DNA of 64,000 nt from Squalus acanthias (lineage: Eukaryota), in assembly GCA_030390025.1 (NCBI GenBank), contig CM059432.1, positions 42,100,001 through 42,164,000 on the forward strand, written 5' to 3'. The notes under the pieces are model-generated. The model was given only the letters and a program-made list of their open reading frames with translations, ran no database searches and was not told the origin of the DNA. The position numbers and the translations under genes are program-made. How positions within the stretch are numbered: the stretch's first letter is position 1; each line of letters begins with the position of its first letter. Positions 869-59,371 of this stretch are shown one piece after another.

Positions 869-1364
869 ATAGATTTATTAAAGAACCGACATGTAATTAC
901 AGTAGGTGTTTCAATCGCAACATTAACAGTTCCAAAAGAGAAAGCTTACAATTCTTATTATCAGATCTTAACTTCGCTACATTTTTACAGTTTTTAGTCT
1001 TATTCAGAATATCCACCAAAATCAAATACAGTACCATTGATCCCCGAGACACAAAGGGGTAAAAATTCACTTGGTTGCGCCTCCCGTTAGCGCCTTAAGA
1101 GGGCGCTAATGGGGCGTTAAGCCGCTAACGCCCGGGCGCAGCGCTGTTTGCGCCGCTCGAGAACTTAACTTGAGATTGTGCGGCGGCGCTAAAACTTACC
1201 GCTGCGACCACCTGCGCGCGCAGATTGTGACGTCATTCCATGGTGCAACGCCCTTGGGGCGCCCCGGAGCGGAAATTGAGTGGCGCCCCCTGCCTTACCG
1301 CCTGGCGCTTCCAACGACCGGAAGACTGGAACATTATCAATCGGTGTGGGGCTGGGGGGGGCGC

Positions 1365-1372
1365 TATTTAAA
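1365..1372 (+). promoter_or_regulatory. TATA-like box (TATTTAAA) upstream of the transposase
   Basis: Follows a GC-rich subterminal region and precedes a (GA)n tract and the ATG at 1568. Motif match only. Confidence 0.35.
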
Positions 1373-1425
1373 GGGGGCCTCTTCCTGTCTTTTTCTGTGG
1401 TCGACATTTATGCACCACTCGTTCT

Positions 1426-1462
1426 GAGAGAGAGAGAGAGATTCGGAGAGAGAGAGAGAGAG
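1426..1462 (+). repeat. Interrupted (GA)n microsatellite in the transposase 5' leader
   Basis: gagagagagagagag attcg gagagagagagagagaga. Confidence 0.85.
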
Positions 1463-1567
1463 ACTTCTACATTGACTCAACGCTTTGTGAGGTAGTTTTG
1501 CCTAGTTCATCCTAACTTTGTTGCTACTTTAGTTGCTGTACCTCATTACTTTTCTGGCAAAGAGAAT

Positions 1568-2728
1568 ATGGGGGCTGCAATGATTGGGGGCGTCGTCCTG
1601 CTCCAGCTGAATCGGAGGATACTGAGACGCAGACAGAGAGTGGCAATGATGGCCAGACGGAGGAGGGCCATCAGGCGCATGTACAGGAGAGCTTACCCTC
1701 CCAGGGTATATCGTGAACAGCTCTCCTACATCCATATGTCTGAGGAGCTGTGTTTGCGAAGGCTGCGATTCAGCAAGGAGGTGGTCACTGAGCTCTGCCA
1801 CCTGCTGCAGCCAGATCTGCAGCCTCAGCTGAGGTCCAGGACGTCTCTGTCGGTGGCAGTGAAGGTCACAGTGGCTTTGAACTTCTACGCCACTGGCTCA
1901 TTCCAAGCTGCTGTTGGGGACCTCGCCAATATCTCCCAGTTTGCAGTGCATCGCTGCATCCGGCAGGTCACCAATGCCCTCTTCAGAAGGAGACGAGACT
2001 TCATCTCTTTCCCTATGACCCCAGACAAGCAGCGTGACCGTGCTCTGGGCTTTGCGAGGGTGGCAGGCTTCCCCATGGTGCAGGGCGCCATTGACTGCAC
2101 GCATGTGGCTTTGCGTGCTCCGCGAGAGAATGCAGAGGAATTCAGGAACAGAAAGGGGTTCCATTCCTTGAATGTGCAGTTGGTCTGTGACCACAGACAG
2201 GTGATACTCGCTGTCAATGCCCACTATCCGGGCAGCTGCCATGATGCTTTCATCCTGCGCCAGACTACTGTGGCAGAGGTTTTCGAGGCACCGCATCAGC
2301 CAGTTGGTTGGCTTCTGGGGGACAAGGGGTACGCATTGAGCACCTGGCTGATGACACCGCTCCGTACGCCAAACACCCGTGCTGAGCTGCGGTACAATGA
2401 AAGCCATCAAGCAACCAGGAACATTATTGAGCGCACAATCGGCGTGCTGAAACAACGGTTCCGCTGTCTGGACCATTCCGGAGGAGCCCTGCAGTACTCG
2501 CCTGAGCAAGTTTCGAACTTCGTAGTCGTGTGCTGCATGTTGCACAACATGGCAATCCTCAGGACCCAGCCAATGCCACCAGGCCTTGGAGCACCACCAG
2601 AGGAGGAGGAGGAAGAGGAGGAAGAGGACGAGGACGATGATCATCAGCAGCACCAAGGCAGGAGGGCGGCCCACAATGGTCAAACTGCAAGGGCCGTCCG
2701 TCAACGACTAATAGCAAGCCGCTTCTAG
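1568..2728 (+). CDS. Harbinger DDE transposase (HARBI1-like family), 386 aa, intact
   Basis: Open ORF with GAIDCTH, NRKGFHSLNVQLVCD, PGSCHD, LGDKGY, RNIIERTIGVLKQRFRCL and CCMLHN motifs. Arg-rich N-terminus and acidic C-terminal tract. It lies between TIRs, so it is a transposon copy rather than the domesticated host gene. Confidence 0.95.
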   Translation: MGAAMIGGVVLLQLNRRILRRRQRVAMMARRRRAIRRMYRRAYPPRVYREQLSYIHMSEELCLRRLRFSKEVVTELCHLLQPDLQPQLRSRTSLSVAVKVTVALNFYATGSFQAAVGDLANISQFAVHRCIRQVTNALFRRRRDFISFPMTPDKQRDRALGFARVAGFPMVQGAIDCTHVALRAPRENAEEFRNRKGFHSLNVQLVCDHRQVILAVNAHYPGSCHDAFILRQTTVAEVFEAPHQPVGWLLGDKGYALSTWLMTPLRTPNTRAELRYNESHQATRNIIERTIGVLKQRFRCLDHSGGALQYSPEQVSNFVVVCCMLHNMAILRTQPMPPGLGAPPEEEEEEEEEDEDDDHQQHQGRRAAHNGQTARAVRQRLIASRF

Positions 2729-3022
2729 GGCCCCTGCCATTGCTACAAACACTAATCAACCCAGCACGCAACCCCTAAGCCGGCCAAGGCACCAATAATT
2801 CCAACCACCAGCCATGTATATTTTGAATACAGAAACTTATTTATTTTACAAACTCTGTGTGTGTCAATTCCTCATGACAAACTCATAGAAATAAACACAA
2901 AAAAACAGTCAATAACATAACTGGTTCTCACAACCTGGAGATAATGTCCAAAACACTAAACAAAAGATGGACCATGAACCTCGGCCTTTAATAAAAAAAT
3001 GACCAGCATTTTGTCACACCTC

Positions 3023-4844
3023 CTACTTTTTGCCCTTCGAGGGTGATCTCCTTCCCTTGCGCACTTCCCCCCTTCTAACCCTACTGCTCCTCCGTAATGG
3101 GACCTCAGTGGCTGCAGCAAGGCTGGTGGAAGGCTGCTGCTCGTCAGACCCTGACACTGCAGATGCCCCTGAAGGACGGCCTCGACCACTTCTGGGCCTG
3201 GAGGGCCCGGCTGCAGACTGCACCAACTCTGCATGGGCGGCAGCAGTCTGTCCTACAGGCGGTGGCAAGTGCAGTGGAGAAGTGACAGTGTTGGCAGCAG
3301 GAATGCTGTCATCGTGAGAGAGGCCAGCAACTCCCTGCTCGCCCGACACACTGGCACTCCCACGGGGCAGCACTTCAGCATCCGGAGCAATTTGCCGGAG
3401 AACAGATTGCTGGCCTGCTGCGGCGCGGTGACAGCCCCGGGGACATGTGCACGAACCATCGAGGTTGGCAGCAGTCTGTGCTCGCGTGGCCTCCATCTGA
3501 GTCTGTATGAGAGCAGTCAGAGGTGGGATCACGGCAGCCAGTGACTGAATTGCAGCACTAAGCGTTAGTTTGGCATCCGCCTGTGCTACAGCGAAGTGCT
3601 CCACACTCCTTGCCAGTGACTCAATGCAATCGGGCACCCTTCCCACTGCACCCATGAGCTCAGTGTGCATGCCCACCACCTGGGTGTTCATTTCTGCAAT
3701 CAGCCGCTCCTCCTCTGCGTCCATTGCAGTAGGAGTGTCTGGCATACTCTCCCTCTGGGGAGAAGGCCCCCGTTCTTCCCTACCCCCCCATGGCGTTGCT
3801 GCAGCCCGCTGGGCCCTGGAGCTTCACCATCATCAGCCCCTTCCCCCCTGCTCCCCTCCGGGGAAGGCGTGTTCCCAGTGTGGGCATGGGCTTCCTCGGG
3901 AGAGGGTGGCACTGATGCTCCGGCTTCCTCTTCCTCCTCAGCTGCAGCATCACTCCCAGTGGCAGCTTCAGGGCCCGTCTCCTCAGCTGGTGAATCACCA
4001 TCTGAAAGCAGGGAGGTACAAGAGTGGCTTTAGCGTGAGGACAGGGTGGCAGTAAGGGAGGAATAAGTGCAGCGAGTTAGCAAGTTGGATTGAAAGTGTC
4101 AAAGGCTGGTATTGTGAGGGACAAGTGGAAGGAAAGAGGACAAAAAGGTGATGACCTTACCATTGCTGTCCACAACGGGGTCGGCGTCTCCAGTGGCGAC
4201 GGGACCGATCACCCGGCTTGCCACAATCCTGTGGACGCGCTCCTCCAGATCGCTGAGGGGTTGCAGCTGAAGCCGCCCTCCACCCGTCCGTTGCTGCTGT
4301 CTCCGATTATGAGCCAGCTTAGCCTGCAAGAAAAAGGACAGCATCTGAGTAAATATACAGCCATGGTCTTGCCTGATGTGCCTCCCATAGGTGAATAGCC
4401 CTTACAATATACAGCCATGGTCTTGCCTGATGTGCCTCCCATAGGTGAATAGCCCTTACTGTATGCAAAGTGTGGAATGTGTGTGTGTGTTTGATGAAAG
4501 GGCCATAGGTGTTGGATGAGTGTTGTGCATTGGGGTTTTAAGACCCTCTGGCCATAGAGTGAGGTTGAGATGGAGGGATGGAGAGGTATTGAGAAAAAGC
4601 CACTCACCCTGACGACCCGAGTGAGGTCGTTGAACTTTTTGCGGCATTGAACATGGGTCCTGGGCACCATGCTCCTGGAGGAGACGCTCTGAGCCACCTC
4701 CCTCCACACTCTTCTGAACTCGCGTGGCAAAGGCCTCCTGCCACTCTCCGGGAACAGCATGCATCGTCTGCGCTCCACTGCGTCAACCAGAGCATCCAAG
4801 GCCCGCTCGGTGAAGCGATGAGCGGGTTCTCTCACCCTCTCCAT
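3023..4844 (-). CDS. Harbinger Myb/SANT-like (trihelix) partner gene, 3 exons (4844-4608, 4323-4161, 4001-3023), with one apparent frameshift
   Basis: Exon 1 encodes RFTERALDALVDAV...VWREVAQSV...QCRKKFNDL. Splice sites are canonical (AGG|gtgagt, ttgcag|GCT, ATG|gtaagg, tttcag|AT). The exon 3 frame stops at 3700 unless one G is added, most plausibly in the G7 run at 3783-3789; that gives 1380 nt / 459 aa ending at the TAG at 3023. Confidence 0.8.
4352..4459. repeat. Exact 54-bp tandem duplication in intron 1 of the Myb-like gene
   Basis: aatatacagccatggtcttgcctgatgtgcctcccataggtgaatagcccttac occurs at 4352-4405 and 4406-4459. Confidence 0.95.
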
Positions 4845-5906
4845 GCTTGGCAGCAAAATGGATTACAGGTCTCTCCAGGCTGAGATTCAAGGCTGCAATG
4901 AGCAGGGTGTGGCTGGGGAGCAAGTGGCCCCCCCCGCTTTAAGAAGTGTCCGGCGCCAGTGTGTCTGTGTTCCCTCGCTAACTGGCAGCAGCTGCGCTGC
5001 GCTCGTGCGCTGAGTTAGCGCCTCACTCCTTGGCCTTTGCGCCTTAAGAGAGGTGTGCAGCGCCTACTTTAGCGCTCCACTCACCTCCCGGGGCGGTAAA
5101 AGTGAAGTTTCCTGTCAGTGCCGATAATTAGCGCCAGGCGCTAATATTTGCGTCCGGACGATATTTGCGCCCCAAATGGGGCGCGACCTAATTTCTACCC
5201 CAAAGAGTTGTAGACTTACAGAGCCTGCCTCTGAAGCCTGAGAATCGCTTTGCCCCTTTACAGCGAATCTATCATCCCATTTGAAAGTTCAATATTTATA
5301 TCCTTTCTCAGGGGTATTTCCTTTGAAGTTTTCTGCTGATGTAAGCTATTCTTACAGTCACCTCAGCTGGTAGCAATGCAGACTCGTGTCTCTCCTTTAG
5401 GTGTTCGAAGCTTATCATAAAAAACGGTGTAACAGCAGGTTCATCTATTTGATGTCATCTTTACCAAGATCTTCTGTTTGTGTCTTTTTACGACATGTAA
5501 ATTAAAACACCTCAACCAGGATGATCTATGCAATTCTTAGTTACCTCAGCTGGTTGCAACACAGAATCGTGTCTCCTGTGTTTCATTTGATGTCATTTTT
5601 ACGAAGGCATATGTTTCTTAATTTTATGTGTTTCTTTCCAAAGTGTAATTTAGAACACCTTAACAGGATGTACCATTGTGTTCTTTCCAAAGCTTCAGAC
5701 CTCAGGAGCCTCCAACCTCCTGTTTCAATAAGGTTATTGATTCAGTGTCAACAACTTATCTTATCCCAATAGCCTGAATGCTGTTAACAATACAGCTTTT
5801 CAGAGCCAGGTTTCTAGATTTCCAGACCTAGTTTGTCATGTTTTAATAAAGCCAGAATTCTTTCATAGAATGGTGTATTTTTCTGAATATGGCTTATTCC
5901 TTCACA

Positions 5907-19400: not shown

Positions 19401-19971
19401 TGGTTGGGCCTAGGACATTGCCCTGTGGAACTCCTGCAGCGATATCCTGGGGCTGAGATGTTTGACCGCCAACAACCACAACCATCTTCCTTTGTGCTAG
19501 GTATGACTCCAGCCAGTGGAGAGTTTTCCCCTAATTCCCATTGACTTCAATTTTACTAGGGCTCCTTGATGCCACACTTGGTCTAATGCTGCCTTGATGT
19601 CAAGGGCAGTCACTCTCACGTCACCTCTGGAATTCAGCTCTTTTGTCCATGTTTGGACCAAGGTTGTAATGAGGTCTGGAGCCGAGTGATCCTAGCGGAA
19701 CCCAAACTGAGCATCGGTGAGCAGGTTATTGGTGAATAAGTGCAGCTTGATAGCACTGTTAACGACACCTTCCATCACTTTGCTGATGATTGAGAGTAGA
19801 CTGATGGGGCGGTAATTGGCCGGATTGGATTTGTCCTGCTTTTTGTGGACAGGACATACCCGGGCAATTTTCCACATTGTCAGGTGAATGCCAGTGTTGT
19901 AGCTGTACTGCAACAGCTTGGCTAGAGGAGCGGCTAGTTCTGGAGCACAAGTCTTCAGCACGATAGCCAGG

Positions 19972-21472
19972 AACCAAAGTTGGTCCATTGCAGTCAGATA
20001 CGGGGGAATATATAACGGGAAATAAGGAAATGGCAGACCAACTAAATGCATACTTTGGGTCAGTCTTTACGAAGGAAGACACAAAAAACCTCCCTGGGAT
20101 ATCGGGAAAAATAGGGACATTGGCAAAGGAGGAACTGACGCAAATCAATATCTCTAAGGATATGGTGTTAAGGAAGCTAAAGGGATTGAAGGCGGACAAA
20201 TCCCCAGGGCCTGATAACATGCATCCTAGGGTACTGAAGGAGGTGGCCCTAGAGATAGTGGATGCACTAAGTATGATTTTTCAGAATTCATTAGACTCGG
20301 GAACAGTGCCCATGGATTGGAGGGTAGCTAACGTTACCCCACTATTCAAAAAGGGGGGTAGGGAAAAAGCAGGTAATTACAGACCTGTAAGCCTTACATC
20401 AGTTGTGGGCAAAATGCTGGAGTCCATCATTAAGGATGAAATAGCGGAGCACTTAGCAAGTGGGGACAGGATAGGACAGAGTCAACATGGATTTACAAAG
20501 GGTAAATCGTGCTTGACTAATCTATTGGAATTTTTTGAGGGAGTAACTGGTAAAATAGATGGGGGAGAGCCAGTAGATGTGGTGTACCTGGACTTCCAAA
20601 AGGCCTTTGACAAGGTCCCACATAAAAGATTAGCATGGAAAATTGAAGCTCATGGGATAAAGGGGAAAGTATTGACGTGGATAGAGAACTGGCTGTCAGA
20701 TAGAAAACAGAGAGTTGGAATAAACGGCTCATTTTCTGAATGGCAGGCAGTAACAAGTGGGGTACCACAGGGATCTGTCCTGGGTCCCCAGCTGTTCACA
20801 ATTTACATTAATGACCTGGATCAGGGAGTCGGATGCAGCATTTCCAAATTTGCAGACGACACTAAACTAGGAGGGGGGGTGGGCTCAGAGGAGGAGACCA
20901 GGAAGCTCCAGAGCGATTTGGACAGACTGGGTGATTGGGCGGATAAATGGCAGATGCACTATAATGTGGACAAGTGCGAAGTTATCCACCTTGGGTGCAG
21001 GAACGGGAGGGCAAATTATTATTTAAATGGCAATAAATTGGGAGAGGGGGAAGTACAGAGAGACCTGGGTGTTCTTGTACACCAGTCACTGAAGGCGAGC
21101 ATGCAGGTGCAACAGGCGGTCAAGAAGGCAAACGGTATGCTGGCCTTCATAGCAAAAGGGTTGGAATACAGGAACAGGGATACCTTGCTGCAGCTGTACA
21201 GGGCACTGGTGAGACCACACCTCGAGTACTGTGTACAGTTTTGGTCGCCTCATCTGAGGAAAGATGTTCTTGCCATGGAGGGGGTGCAGCGGCGATTCAC
21301 CAGGCTGATACCAGGAATGGCGGGATTGACCTATGAGGAGAGACTATGTAGTTTAGGGATGTACACACTGGAGTTTAGAAGATTGAGAGGGGACCTCATA
21401 GAAGTGTATAAAATTCTGACAGGTCTAGACAGACTAGATGCAGAAGGAATGTTTCCCTTGGCGGGTGAGAAC
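19972..21472 (+). CDS. CR1 ORF2 reverse-transcriptase segment, open throughout, truncated at both ends
   Basis: ORF track 19988-21556 has NYRPVSLTS, QHGF, LDFQKAFDKVPH, GVPQGSVLGP, KFADD and RPHLEYC. CR1 similarity stops at ...EGMFPLAGE; the remaining residues are read-through into the antisense host LINE. Confidence 0.9.
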
Positions 21473-21560
21473 ATGTTGTCGGGGCCCATCGACTTTGCTG
21501 TATCCAGTGCGCTCAGCCGTTTCTTGATATCACGTGGAGTGAATCGAATTGGCTGAAGAC

Positions 21561-26530: not shown

Positions 26531-27834
26531 TGTAAAGGAATGAGCTAAACCTATTCAGAAAAATACACCATCCTATGAACAGAATTCTGATTTTATTAAA
26601 ACATGACAAACTGGGTTTAAAAATCTAAAAGCCTCAGCATCACAAAGCTGTAAACACCATGCAGGCTTTTGAGATAAAGATTGGTTATTGACACTGAGAC
26701 AATGGCCTATTGAAGAAGCAAAGTGTTGGTTCCAAGGAGTCTGCAGTTTGGAACCAACACAATAGCTATACCCAGTTTAAAGTGTTAAAAAAGTAACACG
26801 TCGAACAGAAACACAGAACATTACATTGAAGAAGCAAAGAGTTGGTTCCAAGAAGTCTGTAGTTTGGAACCAACACAATAGCAATGCCCAAGCAAAGTGT
26901 TAAAATCTAACACTTCGAACAAGAAACACAGAACATTAAAAAACCATGTACCTTTGTAAAAGTAACATCAAATGAAACAGGAAACACGATTATATATACA
27001 ACCAATTGAAGTAGCTAAGAAATGCAAAGAACACCCTAGATGAAGTGTTTTTAATTTTCATGATGTAAAAGATACAAACAGGTGACTTTGAAAATATTAC
27101 ATCAATAGATGACACCAAGCAATCACATTGTGTTTGTATTGAAAATGGAATAGTTAGGAGACACGACGTCTGCTAACAAGCAGTTAAGCCAATATTAAGA
27201 ATTGAATTGAAGACCTTTGAAAGAATGGCATCAAATAGATACTGCTGTTACATTAATTTTTATGATAAGATTTGAAACACCTATACAGCAGACAGGATTC
27301 TAAAAGTTAACAGCTGAATTGACAGTAAGAATAGAAAAGATTTCAATAGAGAATGACTAGAGATAATTAGCTTACATCAGCAGAAAACTTCAAAGGATAA
27401 ACCACTAAAAAAAGGTATAAAAATAGAGCTTTTCAGATAGAGAGAAGAAATCGCTGGAAGGGGCAGAGCGATTCTCGCCTTCAGAACCACTCTGTAGGCC
27501 TACAACTCTTTGAGTCTCAGGTAATCAAGGTATTTGATTTTGGTGGATATTCTGGATTAAGAAATAAGTAGAAATGTAGAAATGTAACGAAGTTAAGATT
27601 TGAGAATAAGGATCTCTGATAAGAAATGTAAGCTATTTGTATTTTGGACTGTTAAAGTTGCGATTGAAATCAACAGCTGTTAACTACATGTCGGTTCTTT
27701 AATAAATCTATATATTTTTAAAATTGTCTCACAGAGTATTTCTGTATCAAACTCGCAAACTCAATTTCTGTACACTCTTCTGTGAGTAGTTGCAGAATTC
27801 TGGGGGGTTTTCCAGACCCTCATAATATCCGACA
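26531..27834 (+). mobile_element. Solo LTR (family A), uninterrupted, about 1.3 kb
   Basis: TG...CA ends (TGTAAAGG...ATCCGACA). TATAAAAA near 27416 and AATAAA at 27701. Internal U3 repeats. Homologous to 1-5906. No TSD seen. Confidence 0.8.
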
Positions 27835-28149: not shown

Positions 28150-28216
28150 ATGCCACATGCGATGGACGATCTGGCAACTTCCACTGCTGCACAGGCGGAA
28201 GCGACGCAAAATCACG

Positions 28217-28848
28217 GGGGGAGAAATTCAGTATCGCCCCATTTGGGGCGCAATTATCGGCCGGGCGCAAAGATTAGCGCCTGGCGCTAATTATCGCCAC
28301 CGACTGCAAACTTGACTTTTATCGCCCCTGGAGGTGATTGGAGAGCTAAATCAGGCGCTTCACACCTGTCTTAAGGCGCAAAGGCCGAGGAGCGAGGCGC
28401 TACCTCAGAGCGCTGGCGAAGCTCATGTAATGTCAGTCAGCAATGGAACACACACACAATGGCACGGGCCAGTTCTTAAAGGGGATGGTTAATCTTGCTT
28501 TCCATCCACATCCTGCTCATTGCAGCCTTGAATCTCGGCCTGGAGAGACTTTCCCTTCATGACTGCAGAACGCTCCCCTCAATCTGTCGTTGCTAGCATC
28601 AGGCGGTAAGGCAGGGGGCGCCACTCAATATCCGCTCCGGGGCGATACCGGGGCGTTGCGCACTCGAGTGACGTCATGATCTGCCGGCGCAGGAGATCGT
28701 GGCGGTAGTGTTTAGCGCCGCCGCAAAATGTCTAGTTAATTTCGCGAGCGGCGCAAACTTCGCCGCGCCTGGGCGCTAGATGCTTTGCGCCCCATTAGCG
28801 CCCTCTTAAGGCGCTAACGGGAGGCGCAACCAACTGAATTTTTCCCCC
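28217..28848 (-). mobile_element. MITE: internal-deletion derivative of the 1056-5201 family
   Basis: The left part matches the reverse complement of about 4870-5201 and the right part matches the reverse complement of about 1056-1305. TIRs GGGGGAGAAATT / AATTTTTCCCCC. Confidence 0.9.
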
Positions 28849-29537
28849 TTAGTGCTGTACTGCAGTCTATGCTTGGTGGCATCCAATCTCAGACTGCTCT
28901 CATGCAGTCTCAGCTTGATGCCACGCAAGCTCTGACTGCTGCCATCCTGGCTGGGTCTACCACTGCCGACCGGGGCTTTCATGATGTCGCAGCAGGCCAG
29001 CAATCTGTGCTCCAACAGATTGCTAGGGATGCTGAGGTGCTGCCCTGGTGGAGTGGCAGTGGGTCAGTGGAGCAGGAACCTGCTGTCCTCTCTCAGGATG
29101 ACAGCATTCCTGCTCCCACCACTGCCACTCCACCATCGCCCTTGTCACTGCTTGTCATCCAGTCAGCCCAGATTGCTGTCGCCCATGCTGAGGTGATGCA
29201 GTCTACAGCCGGGCCTTCCCGGTCCCAAGCTGGTTGAGGGCATCCTGCAAGGCCATCTGAAGTCTCCCGCACGGACACTCAGCAGCCTTCCACAAGCCCT
29301 GCTGCAGCCACTGGGCCAACACTTCGTAGGAGCACTAGAGTAGGCAAAGGCACAGTAATGAGAGGCACTAAGGGATTCCACAAGGGCGAATAGTTAATAT
29401 TTTTGGTGCAAATATGTGTTCACTGACTTTTGATAAACTTATTAATTCAGTTTGGATATAGCTTTGCGTTGTGATATGGCCTGCGACAGGAATGGAATGA
29501 TGGAGATGTGGTGAGCAACGGGGATCTGGGGTTTAAT

Positions 29538-30725
29538 TTATTCAAACCACAGTCTGATGAGGTGGTCATCGACCGCCCTTCCAGAAGGCCGATTGAGTGG
29601 CTGCCTCCTCCCTCGCTCCTGTTCCTCCTCCTCCTCCTTGTTCTCCTCGTCGTCCTCCTCATCTTCTTCTTCTTCTTCCTCTTCCTCCTCGTCCTCTTTC
29701 TCCTCTCCCTCTTCCTCCTCCTGAGGTGGTCCCGCAATCCTTGGTGGCAAGGGCTGGGCCCTCATGATGGCCAAGTAGTGGAGCATGCAGCAGACCACCA
29801 CGAAATGGGACACCCGCTCAGCCGAGTACTCAGCCATTGCTTCAGCAGGCCGATGGTCTGCGCGATGATTTTCCTGGTGGCAGCATGGCTCTCATTATAT
29901 GAGTGCTGGGCAGGAGTGTTGGTGTTGCGGAGGGGGTCATGAGCCAGTTGGAGAGAGGATAGCCCTTGTCTCCGAGCAGCCAGCCCCGAGTTTGACGTGG
30001 TGGCTGGAAGAGTGCTGACACCCTGGTCTGGCGCAGGATGAAGGCATCGTGGCTGCTGCCAGTATAACGGGCATTGATGGGGAGGATTCACTATCTGTGG
30101 TCGCACACCAACTATACATTAAGTGAGTGGTAGCCTTAGCGGTTAGTGAAGACCTCAGGATTGTTATGCGCTGCCCGCAAAGCCATGTGGGTGCAGTTAA
30201 TGGCACCCTGCACCACGGGGAATCCCGCTATCATGGCAAAGCCACATGCACGCTCGTCCTGCTTCTCTCTGGTGATGGGGAAGGAAATGTAGTCCCTTCT
30301 ATGACTGTAGAGAGCCTCTGTAACCTCCCGGATGCAGCGATGGACGGCGAACTGCGAGATGTTACCTATGTGTCCTGTTGCAGACTGGAAGGATCTGCTG
30401 GTGAAGAAATTGAGGGCAACGGTGACTTTGACTGCCACTGGAAGAGCCGTGGTTGCCCTGGTCTGAGACTGGTGGTCTGATTACAGGAGGTGGCAGAGTT
30501 CTGTGACCAACTCCTTGGTGAAGCAGAGCCTTCTACTACACTGCTCCTTGCTTAATTGGAGGTAGGAGAAGTGCTCTTGGAATACCCTCAGAGGGTAAGG
30601 CCTCCTGTTGAGAGCCCTGATGGCCATCCTTCTCCCTCAGGGCACATGTTCCAGTCTTTCTCGCTGCCTCCGCTCTCTCCCCTGTAGATCCTGGAGGGTG
30701 AGGTCGACTGCCAGTACAGCCACCT
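29538..30725 (-). pseudogene. Harbinger transposase pseudogene
   Basis: Fragments AVKVTVALNFF, VQGAINCTH and VVVCCMLHYLA plus an acidic tail, spread over several frames. Confidence 0.9.
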
Positions 30726-30729
30726 TTAA

Positions 30730-31810
30730 TGTTATGATGTGTAGAATTTTGATTCTTTAACGAATAAATGTAGCTACTTCCTGGTGCGTCACACCAGCTC
30801 TCCCTGTCGGTGTTTACTCCAGGCGCAAAGGTAAGTAGCGAGAATCAATTTAGCAGATTGGGTGGTCTGTGAGCATTGCACACTCACTGGCATCACATTC
30901 CACCTGCCGTTGACGTGTAAGACGTGCGGAATTACCCCTCACCCCGTCCAACAGGTTATAGAGTTCGGACTTGAGACTTATGAGAAATTACACCAGACAC
31001 ACGGGTTCTGCCTTTTATTGTTCCTAAAACAGATTCAAAACCCCAACCACTATCGAGCAGTACACCAATAATGTTACAAGAAATCATACATACATCCACT
31101 CGCAGATGATCAGTCCAGCGTTGATTGTATGTCCTCATAGGTGAGATGACTGGCCAGGCCACCTCCTTCCGACTGCATTGCCGATATTTTTCGTCACTGG
31201 TTTTTATACAGTTTTCCTTGCCTTTTTCAGTAAATCAATCATTCAGAGATGGTGAGATGTTCCTTTAATGTTCGACCTAAGTTGTTTGAGCTGTCAAAGT
31301 TTCACACTCACACATTCTGTGTGGCTACCCATTAGTTGCCTTTATTAAAGCCCAAAATTGTTCATTCACGTTGCATCCTGTATTTCAGAACTTGAAAGGT
31401 TTGACTCCTCCCCTTTAGCCACCAAAAGTCGTTCTACAATCTTGTAGCCTGTTTTGTTGTAGACACGAAGTCTGCAAATCTAAGGGGGTTTGTTTATCTC
31501 TGTTGTCTATGACTACCCCCTGCAGTCACAACCATTTGTTCTGTCAGTATCTGCTTATCTGAAACACAGCTCTTGAAATATCTCCATCACAAAGCAGCTT
31601 CCAAATACAACAGTTCCTTTTGAAAGCACATTTGCTCCCAAATGTTTGCTGCCTTTTAGTAAAGCACATCAAAGCACATTCCATGACCACTTATCAGTGA
31701 AAGACCATCTGTTACAACTTTATTTCACTTCAAAAAAACCTTTTAGCCTGGCAAAGCATTTCAATATATACCAAAATTAAAAATTAAGGGTCTGTGTATG
31801 CCTACAGACA
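30730..31810 (-). mobile_element. Probable solo LTR (family B)
   Basis: Non-Harbinger block bounded by TG...CA inside the Harbinger. On the minus strand TATAAAAA near 31208 is followed by AATAAA near 31019. No TSD seen. Confidence 0.55.
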
Positions 31811-31965
31811 TTCCCGGCGATACCTCTTACCGGCGGCACTATGGGGGGGGGCGGGATTTGGCATGCAGCGCTGGATGTACCTCGCCCTGGCGATACTGGT
31901 ATAGCACCCCATTACCGCCATCTGCTGGTGCTAATGGGAGGCGCTAAGGGGATGAATTTTCCCCC

Positions 31966-33257
31966 TTATGTGTCCTCCTCACTGCTTGCTTACCCACTTA
32001 GCTTTGTATCATCAGCAAACTTGGATACATTACACTCGGTCCCTTCATTTACGTTATTAATATAGACTGTAAATAGCTGAGGTCCAAGCACTGATCCTTG
32101 CAGCAACTCACTAGTTATAGTCTGCCAACAGAAAATGACCCGTTTATCCCTACTCTCTGTTTTCTGTCCGTTAACCAATCCTCTATCCATGCTAGTATAT
32201 TATCCCAACCTCATGAGCCCTTATCTTGTGTAACAACCTTTTATGTGGTACCTTTCTTTTCGTTCACGGGATGTGGGCGTCGTTGGCAAGGCCAGCATTT
32301 ATTGCCCATTCCTAATTGCCCTTGAGAAGGTGGTGGTGAGCCGCCATCTTGAACCAGTGCATTCTATGCTTCTTTGTAACAGTTTGGTATAACTGAATAT
32401 TTTGCTAGGTCATTTCAGAGGGCAGTTAATAGTCAATCACATTGCTGTGGGTCTGAAGTCACATATAGGCCTGACCAGGTAAGGACGGGAGATTTCCTTC
32501 CCTAAAGGACATTAGTGAACCAGATGAGTTTTTACGACAATCCGGCAGTTTCACGGTCACCATTACTGACACTAGCTTTTTATTCCAGATTTATTTAATT
32601 AACTGAATTTACACCTTGTCGAATGCCTTTTGAAAATTCAAATATAATCTACCCTGTTAGTTACATCCTCAAAAAACTCTAATAAATTTGTTAAACACGA
32701 TTTCCTTTTCATAAAACCATATTGACACTGCCTAATCATATTATAATTTTCTAAGTGCCCTGTTACCATTCCTTAACAATGGATTCCAGCATTTTCCCGA
32801 TGACTGATGTCAGGCTAACTGACCTGTAGTTCCCTATTTTCTCTCTCCTTCCTTTCTTGCATAGCGGGGTTACATTTGCTACCTTCCAATTGCTGCGACC
32901 ATTATAGAATCTAGGGAATTTTGGAAGATCACACCCAATGCATCCACTATCTCTGCAGCCACCTCTTTCAGAACCCTAGGATGTAGGCCATCAGGTCCAG
33001 GGGCTTTGTTGGCTTTTAGTCACATTAGTTTCTCAAGTACTTTTTCTCTGCTGCTATTAATTACTTTAATTTCCTCAATCTCATTAGCACTTTGGTTCCG
33101 CACTATTTTTGGTATTTTTTGTGTCTTCTACTGTGAAGACAGATACAAAATATTTGTTTAATGTCTCTGCCATTTCCTTATTCCCTATTATAATTTCTCC
33201 TGTCTCAGCCTCTAAGGGACCAACGCTTACTTTTGCTACTCTCTTCCTCTTTACATA
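31966..33257 (-). mobile_element. CR1 LINE fragment carrying an inserted SINE-like element (about 32255-32611) whose tail matches LINE family B
   Basis: LGPQLFTVYIN, KFADDTKL and GEIIIGNKEMAE motifs. The insert is flanked by ACCTT direct repeats. Confidence 0.75.
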
Positions 33258-38549: not shown

Positions 38550-40690
38550 TAGAGGACTGGCTATAAGCCATAGGCGGGTTTGAATACCAGCTCTGTTGCA
38601 GAGGACTCAGATGCAGACTTCGAAGACCTAGCCTACCGAAGAAGGCTGATAGGCATATACCAGGTAATGTTAAGTGCACTGGGCAGCCTGTCAGCGAGCC
38701 TGCAGATAATGTTGCAGAGTATGCAGAAGTCGAGCTTCAACTTGTGTCAAGGCTTCGCGGAGATCATGGACATCATTCTGTGCAACATGGATCGAGCGGT
38801 CAGCTCCATTAACACCATGCTAATTCTGCCCGTCATGGAGCCTCTCCTTACAGCTCTCACAGTTGCCATGGAAGCTCAGTCAGTTTCCACCTTGGCTTTA
38901 GGGGCCACTGTTGACAGGGGCTTCCAGAGTGTCACCTCATTCCTGCACTCTGATCTTGCGCAGCGCCGCAGGAGTGCTGAGGCACAGTCTCAGGGGAGTG
39001 GCCTTGGCTCCATGGAGTGGCACCTGCTGTCACCTCTCAGGATGACAGCATGCCTGCTCCCCCACCACCCACTCTGCCAGTGTCCTTGTTAGTAATACAC
39101 AGTGAGCTGGGCCAGCTTGCCACGGCCTACCCATAGATGCTGCAATCTGCAGCTGGGCCCTCAAGGCCCACAGCTGCTCGAGGACGCCCACCATGACCAT
39201 CTGAAGTGTTATCAGTGGAAGCTCAGCAGCCTTCTACTCCCCAAGCTGCAACCACTAGCACATAAGACACGCACGAAGGGCTTGCACAAGGTTGACTCAT
39301 AAATATTTCTGTTCACTGTTAGATACAGATGGAATTGAATTGTTTGATAAATTTGTTATTTGTTTTGGATTTGGTGTTGGTGTTTGTAGTGAAGTGAGGA
39401 CAAGACCCATAAGGCTGGACTGAATGAAAGCAGTCGGATGGTGGTAGTAAGGATGATGGTAAGAATTGTGGGACTGTTGGTGTATTGGGGATTGGAGGGA
39501 TGGTTTAGGTGAATAGCTCTTTGATGAGTAGCTCTTTAAAAGCTCCAGCAGCTGGGGCATTGGTGGTCGATGCCTCACCTACTCTTCTTCTTCTTCATGC
39601 TCCTTCTCCTTATCATCCTCCTCCTCCTGCTGCACTTCTTGTTGCCCAGGTGCTGGTAAGGACTGGCCCCCAATGAAAGCAAGATTATGGAGCATGCAAC
39701 AGATGACCACAAATCTGGATACTCGCTCAGGGGTGTCCTGTAAAGCTCCCCCGGAATGGCCCAGGCAGTGGAAGCGTTGCTTGAGCATGCCAATTGCTTG
39801 TTCAATCACGTTTCTTGTGGCTGCATGGCTCTCATTATAGGCATGCTCTGCAACTGTGCATGGGTTCCTGACAGGAGTCATGAGTGGATAGCTTATGTCC
39901 CCCAGTAGCCAGCCTGTATCTTGACAGCCTGGTTGGAATAAAGGCAGCACAGAGGACTGGTGCAGGAAGAAACAGTCATGACTGAAGCCAGGATATCGGG
40001 CACAGGCCTACATGATGCTCTGCCTGAGGTCGCAAACCAGCTGCCCATTGAGGGAATGGAATCCCTTACAATTGATAAAGGTGCCAGACGGGTGAGGGGG
40101 AGGACCTAAGGTGGATGTAATCTATGGCACCTTGCACCCTGGGGAAGCCTGCGATGCAAGCAAATCCTAGTGCTCTTTTGTCCTGTTTTGCTCTGTCCAT
40201 GAGGAATGGGTTGTAGGTGTCCCTCCTGATGTAGTGAGCCTCAGTGACCTCAGCGGTAGACTGTGAACTGGGATATGTCGCTGATATCACCTGCTGCAGC
40301 ATGGAAGGAGCCCATGGCATACAAATTAAGGGCCACGGTGACCTTGACAGCCACAGGCAGTGTTGTCCATGCTCTGATCTGAGGCTCAAGTTGTGGTTGC
40401 AGCAGGTGACATAGCTCAGTGACATCCTCCTTTGTGAAGTGAAGGCACCTCCTACATTGCTCCTTAGTGAAGTTCATGCAGGGGAAGTGCTCCCTGTATA
40501 TCTGCTGTGGATATGGCCTCCTGCGCAGTGCCCTCCTCCTCGTCTCTCTTGTGGCAGCTGCTCCTGCTCTCTGCTGTCATCCTTGCCTTTCCCCCTCGTC
40601 CACTAGTCCCGAAGGCAGCCCTACCAGACCACCCATGACAATAATGGGACTTAAGAGAGGCAAATAACCAGGACAGGATGGTTTGCACCC
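38550..40690 (-). pseudogene. Degenerate Harbinger core: ORF2 remnant (+, about 38580-39290) and transposase pseudogene (-, about 39540-40640); no TIRs found
   Basis: [29 protein letters not shown] and RNVIEQAIGMLKQRF in broken frames. Confidence 0.85.
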
Positions 40691-42487: not shown

Positions 42488-44222
42488 GGCCGGAATTTTG
42501 CGGGGCTCAGCGGGTGCGATCGGTGGCGGGTCGGGTGGGAAAGTTTTTTTTTTCACAGCGGATCGTGAACCTGACGCCACGCACCTTTCACAATGTCGGT
42601 CTGTCAGTGCTAAGCAGACCCAACACGCAGTGGCGGGAGACCCAATTCAGGTCATTAGTGGCTTCTTTAGAGCCACTTAAGAATGGTTTTCAGCTCACCT
42701 TTTGCATTTGACAGCTCGCCCAAGGTGTCCATGCTGGTCGTGGACCACGTCTGTCGAGCTGAGGCGGGAGTTCAGTGGCCATTGAATCAGCTGTTGAGTT
42801 GACAACTTCAAATGTAAAGTAAAAGCTCCCACCTTACAGAGAAATCTTCCCTCAGCACAAATTCTTCCTCACTGCATTTCCACAACAGATTCACCATGCT
42901 GCAAGTCTTTACACAAGTCTCCATCCAGTCTGACCTCATTACCTCTCCCACCATTGACAGATCGCTTCTGTCATCTCTACTTCACCTGCCATCTATTCCA
43001 TCAGCATGGGTGCCCTTTATACTCTCCCACCTTGGTCCTCAGAATCCCATCACGATCAGCCCCAACACCAGCAGCACCAGGCACACCAGCAGCACCAAGA
43101 ACACCACCAAACTTCTCCGCAATCAACTGATGCTGCACAGGACAGAGGGCATCAGCACCCGACCACATTGCTGCCTGGGACACCAGGGATGGCCTCACCA
43201 TGGCCAGATTTACTTCACTTGACGCTGTACACCCTGGCTGTTACATGATGCACCAGGTTGGCACCACCCCACACCAACACCATAAAGCATCCCTACAATG
43301 CCCAAGCCATTCCGTTCACACTGATCACCATTGTGGGGGATACTATTATGTCTCACCATTCACTGCAATTCACCAAGCCACTTCCAAAGGTGCACACAAA
43401 TCTGTCCAAGAACGCAAAGTGTTGAAAATAAAGGTTTCAATGTTTGACAGCACATTAACAGAAACTTCACATGAACATTGCATAAAACACCCAAGTGCCT
43501 ATCCTTGTGTGTTGTTAGTTGGTATGATTGCACTCGGATGAGGGTGAGTGTGAGGGGTGGCTAGTGAGATGGGGATGTGATGAGAGGCACAGCAGGATGA
43601 GGTTGAGTGTGGCTGGGTGGAGGTGCAAGGTAAGCTGGTGTGAGTGAGGATGTGCAGGAGTAGGGTAGGGACGGCAGAGTGATGGGGATGTGATGAGAGG
43701 CACAGCAGGATGAGGTTGAGTGTGGCTTTGCAGTAACATTTCGTGATCTACTGAAATCATTGAAAGGCTTGCAGCACTGCACCCAGGTCCTCCTGACGAC
43801 ATCCTGCTTGTGCCCTCATCTGTGTTGATCTCCTGGGAAGGTCTCTTCCACCCATGGGAAGGGAAGAGGACCTCCCTGCGTGCTGTGACTCCCTCCATAA
43901 GCATATGGAGGGAGTCATGGGAGAGCCTGGATGCAGCCCTGTGCCTTTGTGCAGTCATTGTCAGTGTTTGCCGAACACTGACAGCACAAATGTCAAAATA
44001 AAATTGGACATGGTCCCTTTAAGGAAACTGGCTGATGATGTGTCATCAAATGACGTCACCAGACCCACTTCCTCTAATTGGCCAGGAAACGCGCTGAGCA
44101 GGCTTAACAAGCCCAATCAAGGGAAATTCATTTCACAGAGCGGGATGGAGCCAGCAGCAGGGTTGGGACCCGCCACCGACGTCGCCCTCACCAGACCTGC
44201 CGAGGTCAGCAAAATTGCGGCC
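42488..44222 (+). mobile_element. Harbinger internal-deletion derivative retaining both gene starts
   Basis: TIRs GGCCGGAATTTTGC / GCAAAATTGCGGCC. Gln/His-rich transposase N-terminus at 43006 (+) and Myb exon 1 remnant at 43958 (-), similar to the 54851-59022 family. TSD not conserved. Confidence 0.85.
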
Positions 44223-48175: not shown

Positions 48176-48919
48176 GGCCCAGAAATTGATCTCGCTCTGT
48201 TCCCGCGGGGGTAAGGCTTTCCCGCGATCTCTCACCTCGCTTGTGCTTTTTCAGATCCAGCTCGCACGAACTTGATGTTCTAGAGATCAGCTGGGCAGTG
48301 CTTGCGTATCCCAGCGGCGTAGTGAATTCGTGCGAGCTGTGGGATCACGTGACTCAGTTAGAGCCAATGGCAGCACACCATCTTCCATTCATAAGTTTCA
48401 CATACTGCTGTGAAATCTATGAATCTTACCCCCCCCCAAAATAACAGCTAAACCTCAATTAAATTAAAAAAAAAAAACCATCACATTAATAAAATAAGTA
48501 TAGTTAATTAAATTAACCATTTTAAATAAAAAATTACATTTTTGAAAAAATTTAAAATCTTTTAAAAAGTTATAAAAATAAACTTACCTGTCTTTAAAGT
48601 CTCTAAAAAAGATATACCTGTTAAAAAAAATTCAAAAAAATACTTAATTCACTACTTACCTTCTTAAAAGTGGGTCTCACTCCTCCTTTTTACATTTCTA
48701 AAATCTTCAGTACTTACCTGCGCGTCCAAAGCATGAAGTGCACAGCGTGCGCGCAGCCTGTAGCGCGCACGCGATGCACCGAGGAACCGCCCCCTTTTCA
48801 AAAGAGCAATTGCCGGTTTTCAGCGCATGCGCAGGGCATGCAGAAAACCGGCAATTGGAGTGGGAATACGCGAGAGTACGCAGTGCGTACTCTCGGGTTG
48901 CGGGATCAATTTCTGGGCC
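48176..48919 (-). mobile_element. Harbinger-type MITE, copy 2 (inverted relative to 126-868)
   Basis: Perfect 16-bp TIR GGCCCAGAAATTGATC. Collinear with the reverse complement of 126-868. The flanks TGT/ATT do not form a clean TSD. Confidence 0.92.
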
Positions 48920-55121: not shown

Positions 55122-57012
55122 ATGACTGCTGCAAGACCAAAGGCATCTCCCAGATTTGATGATGACTCCCTCCATGCTCTTGTGGAGGGAGTGAGGGGCG
55201 CAAAGAGGTTCTGTTCCCCTCAAATGGACAGAGGAAGCCTCCTCAGCAAACCAAAGCAGCCTGGCTACAAATTGCTGAGGAGGTGAGCGCCAGGTCTTTG
55301 TGCTCACGCACCTGGGTTCAGTGCTGGAAAAGATTCAATGATCTGCTATGCACAACAAAAGTGAGTATAACATCACACTTACCTTCAATCTGCTCCCCAT
55401 CTCCTCTCATCACCAGCACTCTGCATTGTCAACCTACTCCTGCACATCTCACTTTACCCTTACATCCCTTGCACCCTTAACCATCCCTCTCTCTCTATGT
55501 ACAGAATCACTCCACCATTCTACTATGCACCCCTCACACTCGCTAACACTGTTATGCAATGACAACAACTAACAACGCACAGGGAGGGCCCTTGGTACTG
55601 GCACCTCACTCCATCTTTGTCTCCCTCTAAGCATCTCTGCTATGGATTCTCTACACTCACTCCAACATTCTCACTCAAACTCCACTTGTGTCCCTCATTA
55701 CAGGAAAAGAGAGCCCACAATAAGAGAGAGAGGGGCAGGACAGGAGGAGGGCCACCTTCGATTGCCCACTTGACCACCGCTGAGGAAGCTGCTCTCGACA
55801 TCGTCGGAGGTGCTGAGGATCTGAAAGTAGGTCACGGTCAGACGGGTGCAGTAGAACAAGCTGGTGACAGAATAGATTTGCAGCCCTCTCATTTAGATTG
55901 CATGAGTGACTGATATGGCATCTGATGTTCATACAGATTGAGTTCTGATCATCTGCACAATTCGATGTGCCTGCTACATTAATATCACATGTCTAACTCA
56001 TGCCTTTACTCCCCCACAGGACCATCGAGAGCCCCCCTCCGCACTGTCCAGGAGGAAGAGCTGGAAGACTCCTCAGAAGAAGCTGCAACCTCTGAGGGCG
56101 CAGTGTCAGTAGAAATTGAGCGCACCCAGCACCAGCGCAGAGACGCGCACCTCGGTAGGTCATTCACGAGATAGATTGGTGTTGTCACCTGGTGTATCAC
56201 AGCTCACAAGAGAGCATCAGCAGATGGTGGAATCAGGGACAGTAGTTGAGAGTCCTCGTCGGCGGCTGCAGGGCGCTCCTAGCTCTGCTCAGCTGTATGT
56301 GGACCCTGTGCCTCTGGGGCCATCCAGAAAGAGAGCGGTGCTATAACTTCAGCAACAAGTGCAGGAGTCTCTGACAGGTTTTGCATCCACGGTAACTGCG
56401 AGTGTGCACAGAATGGAGAAGTCCATCTCAAACATAAGCAATGCCATGTTGGAGGCAATGGCACATGAACGTGCCACCATGGAGAGGGTCGCAACCTCCT
56501 TGGAGGACATAAGTTGCCAGACTCAACAGAGCATGGTGACTCTTCTAAATAGATGGTCTGCTATGGAGGATAGATGGGCAGCTATTGCGAGCTACATGGA
56601 CGTCCCCGTTATGAGGACTGTCAGTACAGAGACGGGTCCTCATGGCCCTACTGATGTGCAGCAAGCTGCTCTCCAGCTACTTGCTAGCAGTGAAGTGTGG
56701 GCGACCCATGAGAGGGTTGTTGGTGGTTGACAACAAGCAAGTGTGGGCTCCTCTCCAAGCGCTCACACTCCCGTGCCACTGCGGAGCCCTTGGTCAGAGC
56801 CCCAGATTCCTCACCCAACTCAGCTGGCCATCTCAGCTCGTGCACAGCCGCAGGAGGAGCAGACTGTTGCCGAGCCCTCACAGGCTCCCAAACCCAGAGG
56901 ACGCCCACCAAAGGTGTCGAAGCAGGAGCAACATGAAAGTGAGCAAGGTGCCTCCACATCTGCTGAATCCACGGGGAAGCACCACGTAGAAGCACGCGTA
57001 AGAGAAAGTTAA
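55122..57012 (+). pseudogene. Myb/SANT-like gene of the inner Harbinger, 3 exons (55122-55360, 55704-55863, 56020-about 57012), frameshifted
   Basis: MTAARPKASPRFDDDSLHALVEGV...WVQCWKRFNDL|gtgagt, then cag|EKRAHNKRERGRTGGGPP. Several frame breaks. Confidence 0.8.
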
Positions 57013-57286
57013 CACACAAATAGTCACAAGGGTAGTCACTTGGGTGTTTTGATGTAGTACAAATTTAAGATTATCATCGTCATTTCAATTGTAATAAAGA
57101 AATGCGATGGCAAACATTCAAAGATTTGGCCTATGTGTGCCCAGAAATGGAAGTGTCACAGTGAAGTGTCAGGGTGCCTTTTATCTGTAATGATGGTGGT
57201 GAGAGTGATAGGAACCCACAGTTTATTGTACAGATGGTGTATGGTGTGTTAAGAAGGTTGCAGCCACATGTGTTTGCTTCATAAAC

Positions 57287-58483
57287 TTAAGCGAATCTGG
57301 CACGGATTAGTGCATCCCTTGCATCACGGCCAGCAATGTGCTCACGTGCTGGTGGAGCTAGCACATTTGCCTCCGCAAGGTCTTCCTCCTCCTCTGAGGA
57401 GGAGGCTTTGCGCTGAGCCACTTGTTCCTCAGGCAGCGGTAAGCCACACTGCTGTGCGATGTTGTGCAGGGCACAGCAGACCACGATGATTCTGGAGACC
57501 CTGGCTGGTGAGTACTGTAGGGCTCCACCTGATCTGTCAAGGCATCTGAATCGCATTTTGAGCAAGCCGATGGTTTGCTCGATGATGGCTCTGGTGGAAA
57601 TGTGGCTGGCATTGTAGCGCTCCTCTGCTTCGTTTGATGGTCTCCTCAACGGCGTCATTAGACACGTCTTCAGGGGATAGCCCTTGTCTCCAAGTAGCCA
57701 TCCGGAAAGTTGCATTGGCGGATTGAAGAGCTGAGGCACAGTAGACTGCCGCAGGGTGAAGGAGTCATGGCAACTGCCAGGGAACTTGGTGCAAACTTGC
57801 ATAATGTTCTTCCTGTAGTTAAGGGAGTGGAAGCCCTTACAATTGACAAATACAGCTGGGTTGTGATGGGGTGCCCTAATGGCCACATGTATGCAGTCTA
57901 CGACGCCCTGCACCCTTGGCAAGCCTGCCATATTTGCAAAGCCAACCGCACGCGCAGTTACACTTGCTTCATCCGTGGAGAAGTGGATGTAATTGTGCGC
58001 CTTTGCAAAGATGGCATCAGTAACCTGCGTGATGCAAGTGTGTGCGGCCGACTGGGAGATGCCGCTAATGTCTGCTGATGATCCCTGGAAGGACCCTAAA
58101 GCAAAAAAGTTGAGGGCAGTGGTGACTTTGACAGCCACTGGTAAGGAGTGTCCACCCACTCCTCTGGGCTCCAGGTGTTGGTGCAGCATTGCGCAGATGT
58201 CAGCAACTACCTCTCGCGAAAGTCTAAGCCTCCTTTGGCACTGCTGCTCAGTCATGTTGAGGAAGCTCATCCTCGGCCTGTAAACCCTGTGTTGGGGGTA
58301 TCTCCTGCACCAAGGTGCAGCCCTGCGCTGATGCCCTCTGCCATGTGCAGCATCAGGTGGGTGAGAAGGAGGTTGGCGCTCCTGTTGTTGCTGCTGCTGT
58401 TGTTGTGCCTGGTTCTGCTGCTGCTGTGACTGCTCTGCCTCCGATTCTGAGGACCAGGATGAGAGGGTACAAATGGTTCCCAT
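57287..58483 (-). CDS. Transposase of the inner Harbinger, 398-aa open frame with a poly-Gln N-terminus and an in-frame deletion of about 6 aa
   Basis: GVVDCIH, LGDKGY and [15 protein letters not shown] are retained. KGFHSLN runs straight into YRKNIM, lacking the VQLVCD seen in 1568-2728. Confidence 0.85.
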
Positions 58484-59331
58484 TCCGTTGGTATATATCT
58501 CAGTTGAGGAATAGATGTTATAAGCGCTCAGGCAATGTGGGGAGAGGGTTTTCCAAGGAGGTCACAGTGCATATTGATCTCAGCTTAACCACTTACAAGC
58601 TCAACAGACCTGCAAAAAGCGTTCCAACACCTCAAAAAACAAAGTTCTGTCATCTGAAAGTCAGCCATGTTACAGGTCCACTTTTATGCTGCAGGTGCAG
58701 CTGTCAAGAATTTGCGTAGTTGCTGAACCCGGCACAATCAGCTGGCGTGTTTTGCGAACGGCGTGGAACATGCTGAAAATGTCCTAAAATGGGAAGAGCC
58801 TGCTAAAATCGGATTATATAGGCAATTAACAAGCTGTTAACTGCCTTAAGTGCCTCTCCCACCGCTTGGTGGCGGGTCTGATTGGGACTCCAAGAGCCGA
58901 CACTTGGCAAAGTTGCGTGGAGGTGGGTTGACGGTGGGTTTGGAACCCGCCGTCAATCAAAACGAATTTAATCTCTCACCCGCCTCCAAACTCGCCCTCT
59001 GAGCATGGGCAAAATCGCGGCCAAAGAGACATGGCTGGAGATCGCAGAACAAGTGAGCAGTAGGACTGTGGTCACCAGGTCCTGGATCCAGTGCAGGAAG
59101 AGATTTACTGACCTCATGAGGTCAGGAAAGGTGAGTACAATGCCACATTCAGCTACATCCTGATGTATGTGTCACCCCAACCTCATTACTCTGCCTTCCC
59201 AAGTCTACTCCTGCACATCACTTCTCACACTAACCTACCTTGCATGTGAACCCATCCCTCACTGTCTATGCACTTACTCACATCCTGATCTGAGTATCCA
59301 CCACCGACACTCACCCTCAGCCTAATGCAAT

Positions 59332-59371
59332 CATAGAATCATAGAATAACACCACAGAAGGAGGCCATTTG
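59332..59371 (-). mobile_element. 40-bp CR1 3' tail insertion in a Harbinger intron
   Basis: CATAGAATCATAGAAT...GGAGGCCATTTG flanked by GCAAT direct repeats (59327-59331, 59372-59376). Confidence 0.7.

Follow-up and report, generated by a model that had tools for sequence, protein, structure and literature searches.

A full-length two-gene Harbinger-type transposon from a shark, with an unbroken transposase gene and a probably damaged helper gene

Introduction

Harbinger-like DNA transposons need a pair of proteins, namely a transposase plus a Myb-like helper, as established for Ping/Pong and for the zebrafish element Harbinger3_DR (PMC2836001). The Myb-like protein binds both the ends of the element and the transposase, which it imports into the nucleus, and the superfamily duplicates a 3-bp target, with vertebrate elements reading about 15 bp (PMC2836001; here and below, published work is cited from the accessible parts of the papers). 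We analyzed an element of this kind at 1056-5201 of a 64,000-nucleotide stretch of the Squalus acanthias genome (contig CM059432.1, forward-strand positions 42,100,001 to 42,164,000), which we call the window. We consider it probable that this is a full-length two-gene Harbinger-type copy in which the transposase gene is unbroken, while the helper gene is frameshifted and likely carries an internal deletion. Because of this damage to its helper gene, the element likely cannot move alone (i.e., without helper protein supplied in trans).

Intact and reconstructed vertebrate Harbingers have already been published (PMC8437027; PMC3016246). The reconstructed Harbinger3_DR resembles the shark element in having separate genes, one encoding a DDE transposase and the other a Myb-like protein, and in making a 3-bp duplication, and the target of the shark element matches its 15-bp consensus, AAACACCWGGTCTTT, at 9 positions (PMC3016246). 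Compared by description rather than sequence, the two differ in the duplicated triplet, which is CWG in Harbinger3_DR and AAA here. Moreover, Harbinger3_DR was shown to be active in human cells, whereas the shark element is known here from its sequence alone. NuwaII elements (PMC4482050) have in common with it the C and G flanks of the target, terminal inverted repeats (TIRs) starting with GG, DDE_Tnp_4 and Myb open reading frames (ORFs), and a length of ~4-5 kb. Their vertebrate members come from turtle and frog, with no shark member among the 28 rows of the published table, and by description they differ in triplet (TNA versus AAA) and TIR length (13-46 bp versus 12 bp). Like the shark element, Harbinger-Snek of sea kraits is a young vertebrate Harbinger in a marine host. 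It occurs in full-length, single-ORF, and short non-autonomous forms, with 269 intact copies in one species together with transcription (PMC8437027), whereas we describe a single, apparently damaged copy read from genomic DNA.

In sharks, the whale shark repertoire includes Harbingers (PMC8455134), and in the grey reef shark they rank with the most common DNA transposons (PMC12498223); the accessible parts of both papers give Harbinger as a repeat class only. The corresponding part of a 2022 study reports that none was detected in the elephant shark and leaves other cartilaginous fishes to be analyzed (PMC9179366). Our search of the literature, with subscription papers and repeat libraries outside its scope, found no element-level account of a shark Harbinger family, and the family may be present in the supplements of PMC12498223, PMC8455134, or PMC8437027. 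The element falls, as an unexceptional member, in the known Harbinger group, and adds a well-defined full-length shark representative to a superfamily left open for cartilaginous fishes (PMC9179366).

Ends, target site, and classification

As for its ends, the element (Table 1) has 12-bp TIRs that are identical at 11 positions, beyond which the two ends agree just loosely. Of 400,000 random end pairs drawn from 9001-64000, a single one equaled this match and none did so with a 3-bp direct repeat as well, which confirms the matched TIRs reported in a first-pass annotation of this DNA. The flanks are part of an older host repeat, a paralogue of which is found in the window (27209-27711). Since this paralogue reads through the insertion site with one AAA, the AAA target-site duplication that the annotation had set against an empty site is real.

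The target reads C|AAA|G, the triplet being AAA in both duplicates and in the empty paralogue at this one site. With regard to the extended target preference of the superfamily (9-15 bp), background positions agreeing as well with the Harbinger3_DR consensus number 694 of 54,986 (1.3%), and a reconstructed target site of a miniature inverted-repeat transposable element (MITE) likewise scores 9/15, two sites having been scored in all. The site of the element also fits the pattern A-N-N-Y-[triplet]-R-N-N-T, as do 992 of the 54,986 background positions. Three copies of TTAGCGCC/GGCGCTAA are present in each subterminal region, and no looser form occurs within the element's inner 3,400 bp; these repeats are likely to represent putative binding sites for the Myb protein. 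The AATAAA-type signals in the spacer shared by the two genes, identified by pattern match, lie at 2890 and 2990 on the plus strand and at 2840 and 2987 on the minus strand.

The element belongs to the Harbinger-like (PHIS) superfamily in the broad sense, with a DDE_Tnp_4 transposase bearing an acidic triad, a separate Myb/SANT gene, TIRs, and a 3-bp duplication. Within the superfamily, groups have been defined by their duplications (PMC4482050): TWA for the narrow PIF/Harbinger group of Han et al., CWG for NuwaI, and C|TNA|G for NuwaII. AAA, seen at one site, corresponds to neither of the first two, and it differs from the third in the first base of the triplet, with both flanking bases in agreement. 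We therefore assign the element to no duplication-defined group, nor do we class it as autonomous, as the helper predicted from the assembly stops at codon 234 and two intact ORFs are not found. It is also distinct from the domesticated HARBI1/NAIF1/MSANTD genes, which stand as single copies at orthologous positions and have no mobile ends, since TIRs, a duplication, and an empty paralogous site are all present.

Transposase gene

The transposase gene is open over 386 codons, and its product matches Pfam DDE_Tnp_4 (PF13359) with an E value of 8.9e-39. Of 387 homologues found, the best 120 were used; sharks and rays supply 112 of these, pointing to an elasmobranch host, the top identity is 65%, and databases label all the close ones "putative nuclease HARBI1." Aligned with the full set of 120, the transposase carries the consensus residue at 94 of the 94 columns conserved at 80% or more. 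At the same columns, the 79 homologues covering at least 85 of the 94 show 1-27 departures each. This bears out the uninterrupted DDE transposase of the first-pass annotation. We take D176, D252, and E288 to be the catalytic triad; they are matched in 98 of 117, 93 of 115, and 77 of 116 homologues, respectively.

A structure model of the transposase built from 61 sequences has a predicted local distance difference test score (pLDDT) of 90.6, while prediction from the single sequence (pLDDT 38) was of no use. A fold search with the model produced no match reaching E 0.001, with a piggyBac transposase and retroviral integrases ranked first, and a sequence search of the PDB gave no real match (best E 0.2).

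A midpoint-rooted tree was built from 41 rows: the element, 37 homologues chosen by hand, and three further copies from the window, a frameshifted copy at 39.6-40.6 kb being excluded. The element falls inside a clade (support 96/94) whose 12 rows come from sawshark, rays, and the window and which nests in a 34-row group set apart from seven bony-vertebrate or unnamed rows (100/100). The elasmobranch HARBI1 and Myb-like gene models (from Pristiophorus, Heptranchias, Mobula, Narcine, and others) reach up to 65% transposase identity, and P0125 and P0124 share the helper architecture of the element. These models are automatic predictions rather than described elements. Since none comes within 35% of the transposase, there is no close protein for the family among the matches listed.

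The same tree contains short-branch groups of "putative nuclease HARBI1" sequences (P0004/P0005; P0011/P0013; P0022/P0023/P0067; P0039/P0040; P0008/P0014/P0020/P0021/P0028) that span distant sharks and rays, apart from bony-vertebrate sequences. Judging from their branch lengths, these groups may be Harbinger transposases domesticated inside elasmobranchs.

Helper gene

The helper gene is convergent to the transposase gene and is predicted to consist of three exons separated by GT-AG introns. Its Myb/SANT domain matches Pfam Myb_DNA-bind_5 (PF13873) with an E value of 3.8e-8, 68 homologues were found, and homologue P0125 aligns gap-free over the joint of exons 1 and 2. The convergent Myb/SANT-like gene proposed earlier, with its splicing as predicted here, thus holds up, and with it the view of the locus as a little-decayed DNA transposon of the Harbinger type, with two genes and a vertebrate host. 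Intron 1 also contains a perfect 54-bp tandem duplication (4352-4459).

Read as assembled, the spliced gene stops at codon 234, and its frame changes in exon 3. In the sawshark gene models P0122, P0124, and P0125, the match to one frame ends at exon-3 codon 71-72 and resumes in the other at codon 72-73, the position of a run of seven G. A hidden intron was considered in place of a frameshift and rejected, the homologues being continuous across the run. We then inserted one to four unknown residues at the frame change and compared the resulting alignments with five homologues. Two residues gave the best, gap-free alignment for three of the five (P0122, P0124, and P0125); for P0129, one residue scored better by one point, and P0135 did not discriminate. 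This register would favor two extra bases in the run over one missing base, with the caveat that P0122 and P0124 are close kin and that identity is only ~33%. Gain of one base would reopen the helper frame. The first-pass annotation placed the element "possibly one base from autonomy," which fits poorly with the favored register and with a second anomaly, near 3595, that the annotation had overlooked.

The second anomaly is a shortfall of 12-45 amino acids in the helical part of the helper. The distance between helical anchors is 85 amino acids, compared with 97-130 in all seven homologues that have both anchors (of nine other rows), and the MAFFT alignment opens a gap of 45 columns near 3595. 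In pairwise alignments with the 3 of 78 proteins above the score cut, the shortfall appears as a single block of 45 amino acids (P0125, the closest homologue) or as split gaps netting 24 (P0124) or 16 (P0122). By eye, a second Harbinger copy in the window, H2, keeps a segment matching, without gaps, 11 of 19 residues of the P0125 part that is absent from the element. Since the helper is shorter than its homologues and H2 retains a segment aligning to P0125, an in-frame deletion near 3595 is likely. The copy had also been put forward as a good template for reconstruction; with two probable lesions in its helper gene, it is less suitable for this than suggested.

By analogy with the superfamily, the helper protein would bind the ends of the element, likely at the repeated GGCGCTAA motif, and would carry the transposase into the nucleus and to these ends. 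The transposase would then excise the element and reinsert it at a target read over ~15 bp, with a 3-base duplication; here, the flanks of the target fit the known motif, and the central AAA is an unusual triplet. The copy appears to have inserted into the older host repeat and to have decayed by ~1% or less since, perhaps over up to millions of generations in a slow-mutating shark. It would most likely be mobile only with helper in trans, and it could give transposase to other copies.

Several points weigh against a helper gene disabled in this copy. The frameshift sits in a homopolymer, where assemblies err, and either lesion may be shared with other copies of the family. The shortfall was gauged against homologues of ~33% identity, and its size varies with the homologue; a short helper could also be normal for a family that functions. 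The helper's splicing is a prediction, and the shortened 233-amino-acid product would keep the Myb domain and might retain some function.

The C-terminal 266 amino acids of the helper gave no match among 7,593 candidates. Among its homologues, P0122 (sawshark) and P0123 are gene models with two or three tandem Myb-like modules, which could be either tandem exon duplications or fused predictions.

Age, distribution, and alternative readings

To gauge age, neutral decay was simulated in 800 runs per level, a run counting as intact when both frames stayed stop-free and all 94 conserved residues were unchanged. The share staying intact was 59% at 0.25% divergence, 34% at 0.5%, 12.5% at 1%, 3.9% at 1.5%, and 0.9% at 2%, and decay of the element since insertion is likely about 1% or less. 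The observed/expected (o/e) CpG ratio is 1.18 and 0.80 at the two ends and 0.55 and 0.42 in the coding part, compared with 0.39 over 9001-64000.

Words of the element were found in 20 of the 24 sequencing runs listed, 18 of which hold at least half of them; the four with a share of 0.00 were set aside. The positive runs come from 12 studies (11 without that of the best holder) and carry eight organism labels, showing presence only; no RNA run was among the listed runs holding element sequence. The word share of 0.87 in the best run corresponds to a divergence of at most 0.45%, and shares of 0.56-0.68 in the organisms labeled B-H to at most 1.2-1.9%. A word share of 0.58 in one run of 9 million letters suggests many copies. 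Searches elsewhere found no relatives: metagenome contigs yielded 622 pattern matches by protein, of which 0 were confirmed, and none by the 28-base end motif, and viral contigs held none.

The shark mutation rate is 7e-10 per base per generation (interval 1.4-14.1e-10; PMC10587355), at which 0.45% divergence amounts to ~6 million generations. Because sharks mutate very slowly, an unbroken transposase need not mean present activity. The family is recent by sequence, and its low decay is no demonstration of activity; its presence in several species would agree with a burst that preceded or accompanied their separation.

These data bear on whether intact copies at other sites of the genome keep the family transposing today, which would be compatible with a helper-deficient copy at this locus. 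The low decay, the CpG kept at the ends, and the word share of 0.87 speak for current transposition. However, the occurrence of near-identical DNA under eight organism labels agrees with a burst that predates the divergence of these organisms, old copies are preserved by the slow clock of sharks (PMC10587355), and CpG has been lost in the coding part, which makes current transposition unlikely in our view. If intact, polymorphic copies exist, the family would provide a marker for dating events in shark genomes, which evolve slowly, and would let target choice be studied in a second vertebrate Harbinger. Distinctly unlikely is the fuller proposal of an undescribed Harbinger family still jumping in living sharks, 98-99% identical among no fewer than eight species, that has intact copies at other sites and recognizes a 15-bp target by its flanks, the duplicated triplet (AAA) being loose. 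Were it true, cartilaginous fishes would have a DNA transposon active in nature, a ready source for a target-selective vertebrate vector.

Alternatively, the frameshift might be an assembly slip and the short helix a family trait, in which case the copy would be intact and autonomous. The sole frame break in ~2.5 kb of coding sequence does fall on a homopolymer; of the five in the element that reach seven bases or more, no other lies in a coding exon, and the transposase is flawless. Against this, the register of three of five homologues favors two extra bases, a larger slip than one, homopolymers slip in vivo too, and the 11 of 19 residues that H2 aligns to the missing P0125 segment favor a real deletion. 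An intact copy is therefore very unlikely, and we retain the reading of a copy with a damaged helper gene.

We think it slightly less probable again that the family spread by horizontal transfer among the eight organisms with near-identical DNA. Word shares of 0.56-0.68 in organisms B-H would agree with such spread, and horizontal transfer of Harbingers among marine animals has been reported (PMC8437027), but the eight organisms may be close relatives, and the element groups in the tree with proteins of sharks and rays, separate from those of bony vertebrates. Finally, domestication of the gene pair, kept by selection like HARBI1/NAIF1, is scarcely credible: the perfectly conserved transposase, the "putative nuclease HARBI1" names of its close homologues, and the several shark and ray tree groups that look domesticated would suit it, whereas a recent insertion into a repeat is indicated by the TIRs, the duplication, and the empty site of the paralogue, the helper gene is broken, none of the short-branch groups includes the element, and the window holds four more Harbinger transposases.

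Other Harbinger copies in the window

The first-pass annotation had also pointed to a MITE at 28217-28848 as a mobilized derivative of the family. The MITE exists, but it belongs to a sister family: it is 84.0% identical to the element over 263 bp at the left end, where the first 60 bases agree at 58, and 82.6% over 333 bp at the right. The differences comprise 65 transversions and 35 transitions, and since transversions outnumber transitions, it is placed in a separate subfamily rather than taken as a decayed deletion copy. Direct derivation from the element was accordingly rejected, on the 83-84% identity and the excess of transversions. The MITE has TAA on one side and three different bases where the second duplicate is expected. 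Related elements have mobilized short derivatives; that this element did the same does not follow from the MITE.

H2, in which this MITE forms a nested Harbinger-in-Harbinger insertion, has a transposase 65% identical to that of the element, with proportions of nonsynonymous and synonymous differences (pN and pS) of 0.20 and 0.60. Besides that of the element, the window holds four Harbinger transposases. One transposase frame, at 57287-58561, is open over 424 codons, and the helper gene of the same copy has stops.

A second Harbinger-type MITE family is represented by two copies, equal at 719 of 742 aligned bases. The copy at 126-868 shares one host-repeat copy with the element, ~190 bp away. 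It is flanked by ATA on both sides, the paralogous host repeat having a single ATA, while the flanking triplets of the copy at 48176-48919 do not match. Since the former duplicates ATA, loose triplets recur in the window.

Table 1. Coordinates of the element, its parts, and related copies in the window
Feature	Position	Strand	Description or basis
Element, two-gene Harbinger-type DNA transposon	1056-5201		4,146 bp; ends and genes
Left target-site duplication	1053..1055	+	AAA; flank comparison
Left TIR	1056..1067	+	12 bp, GGGGTAAAAATT
Left subterminal region	1068..1360	+	CpG-rich (o/e 1.18); 3x TTAGCGCC/GGCGCTAA
Transposase gene	1568..2728	+	386 amino acids, uninterrupted; Pfam DDE_Tnp_4
Shared 3' spacer between genes	2729..3022	.	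AATAAA-type signals on both strands
Helper exon 3	3023..4001	-	Acidic linker, helical region, basic tail; site of both candidate lesions
In-frame shortfall, approximate site	3590..3602	-	12-45 codons versus homologues
7-G run	3783..3789	-	Helper frame change
Predicted intron 2	4002..4160	-	159 bp, GTAAGG...TTTCAG
Helper exon 2	4161..4323	-	
Predicted intron 1	4324..4607	-	284 bp, GTGAGT...TTGCAG
Helper exon 1	4608..4844	-	Myb/SANT domain; Pfam Myb_DNA-bind_5
Right subterminal region	4860..5189	-	3x TTAGCGCC/GGCGCTAA
Right TIR	5190..5201	-	12 bp, reversed = GGGGTAGAAATT
Right target-site duplication	5202..5204	+	AAA
Host-repeat paralogue	27490..27560	-	Empty site, single AAA
MITE of sister family	28217-28848	-	632 bp; inside helper gene of H2
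H2, second Harbinger copy	~28150-31966	-	Frameshifted transposase; truncated in helper gene; carries MITE
Decayed Harbinger copies of other families	38574-40576, 55181-58561, 59011-61728, 43744-43958		
Second Harbinger-type MITE family	126-868 and 48176-48919		12-bp ends, GG start, AAATT end

Elsewhere in the window, a frame at 19967-21556 is open over 529 codons and presumably encodes a reverse transcriptase, given its resemblance to that of CR1-type long interspersed elements.

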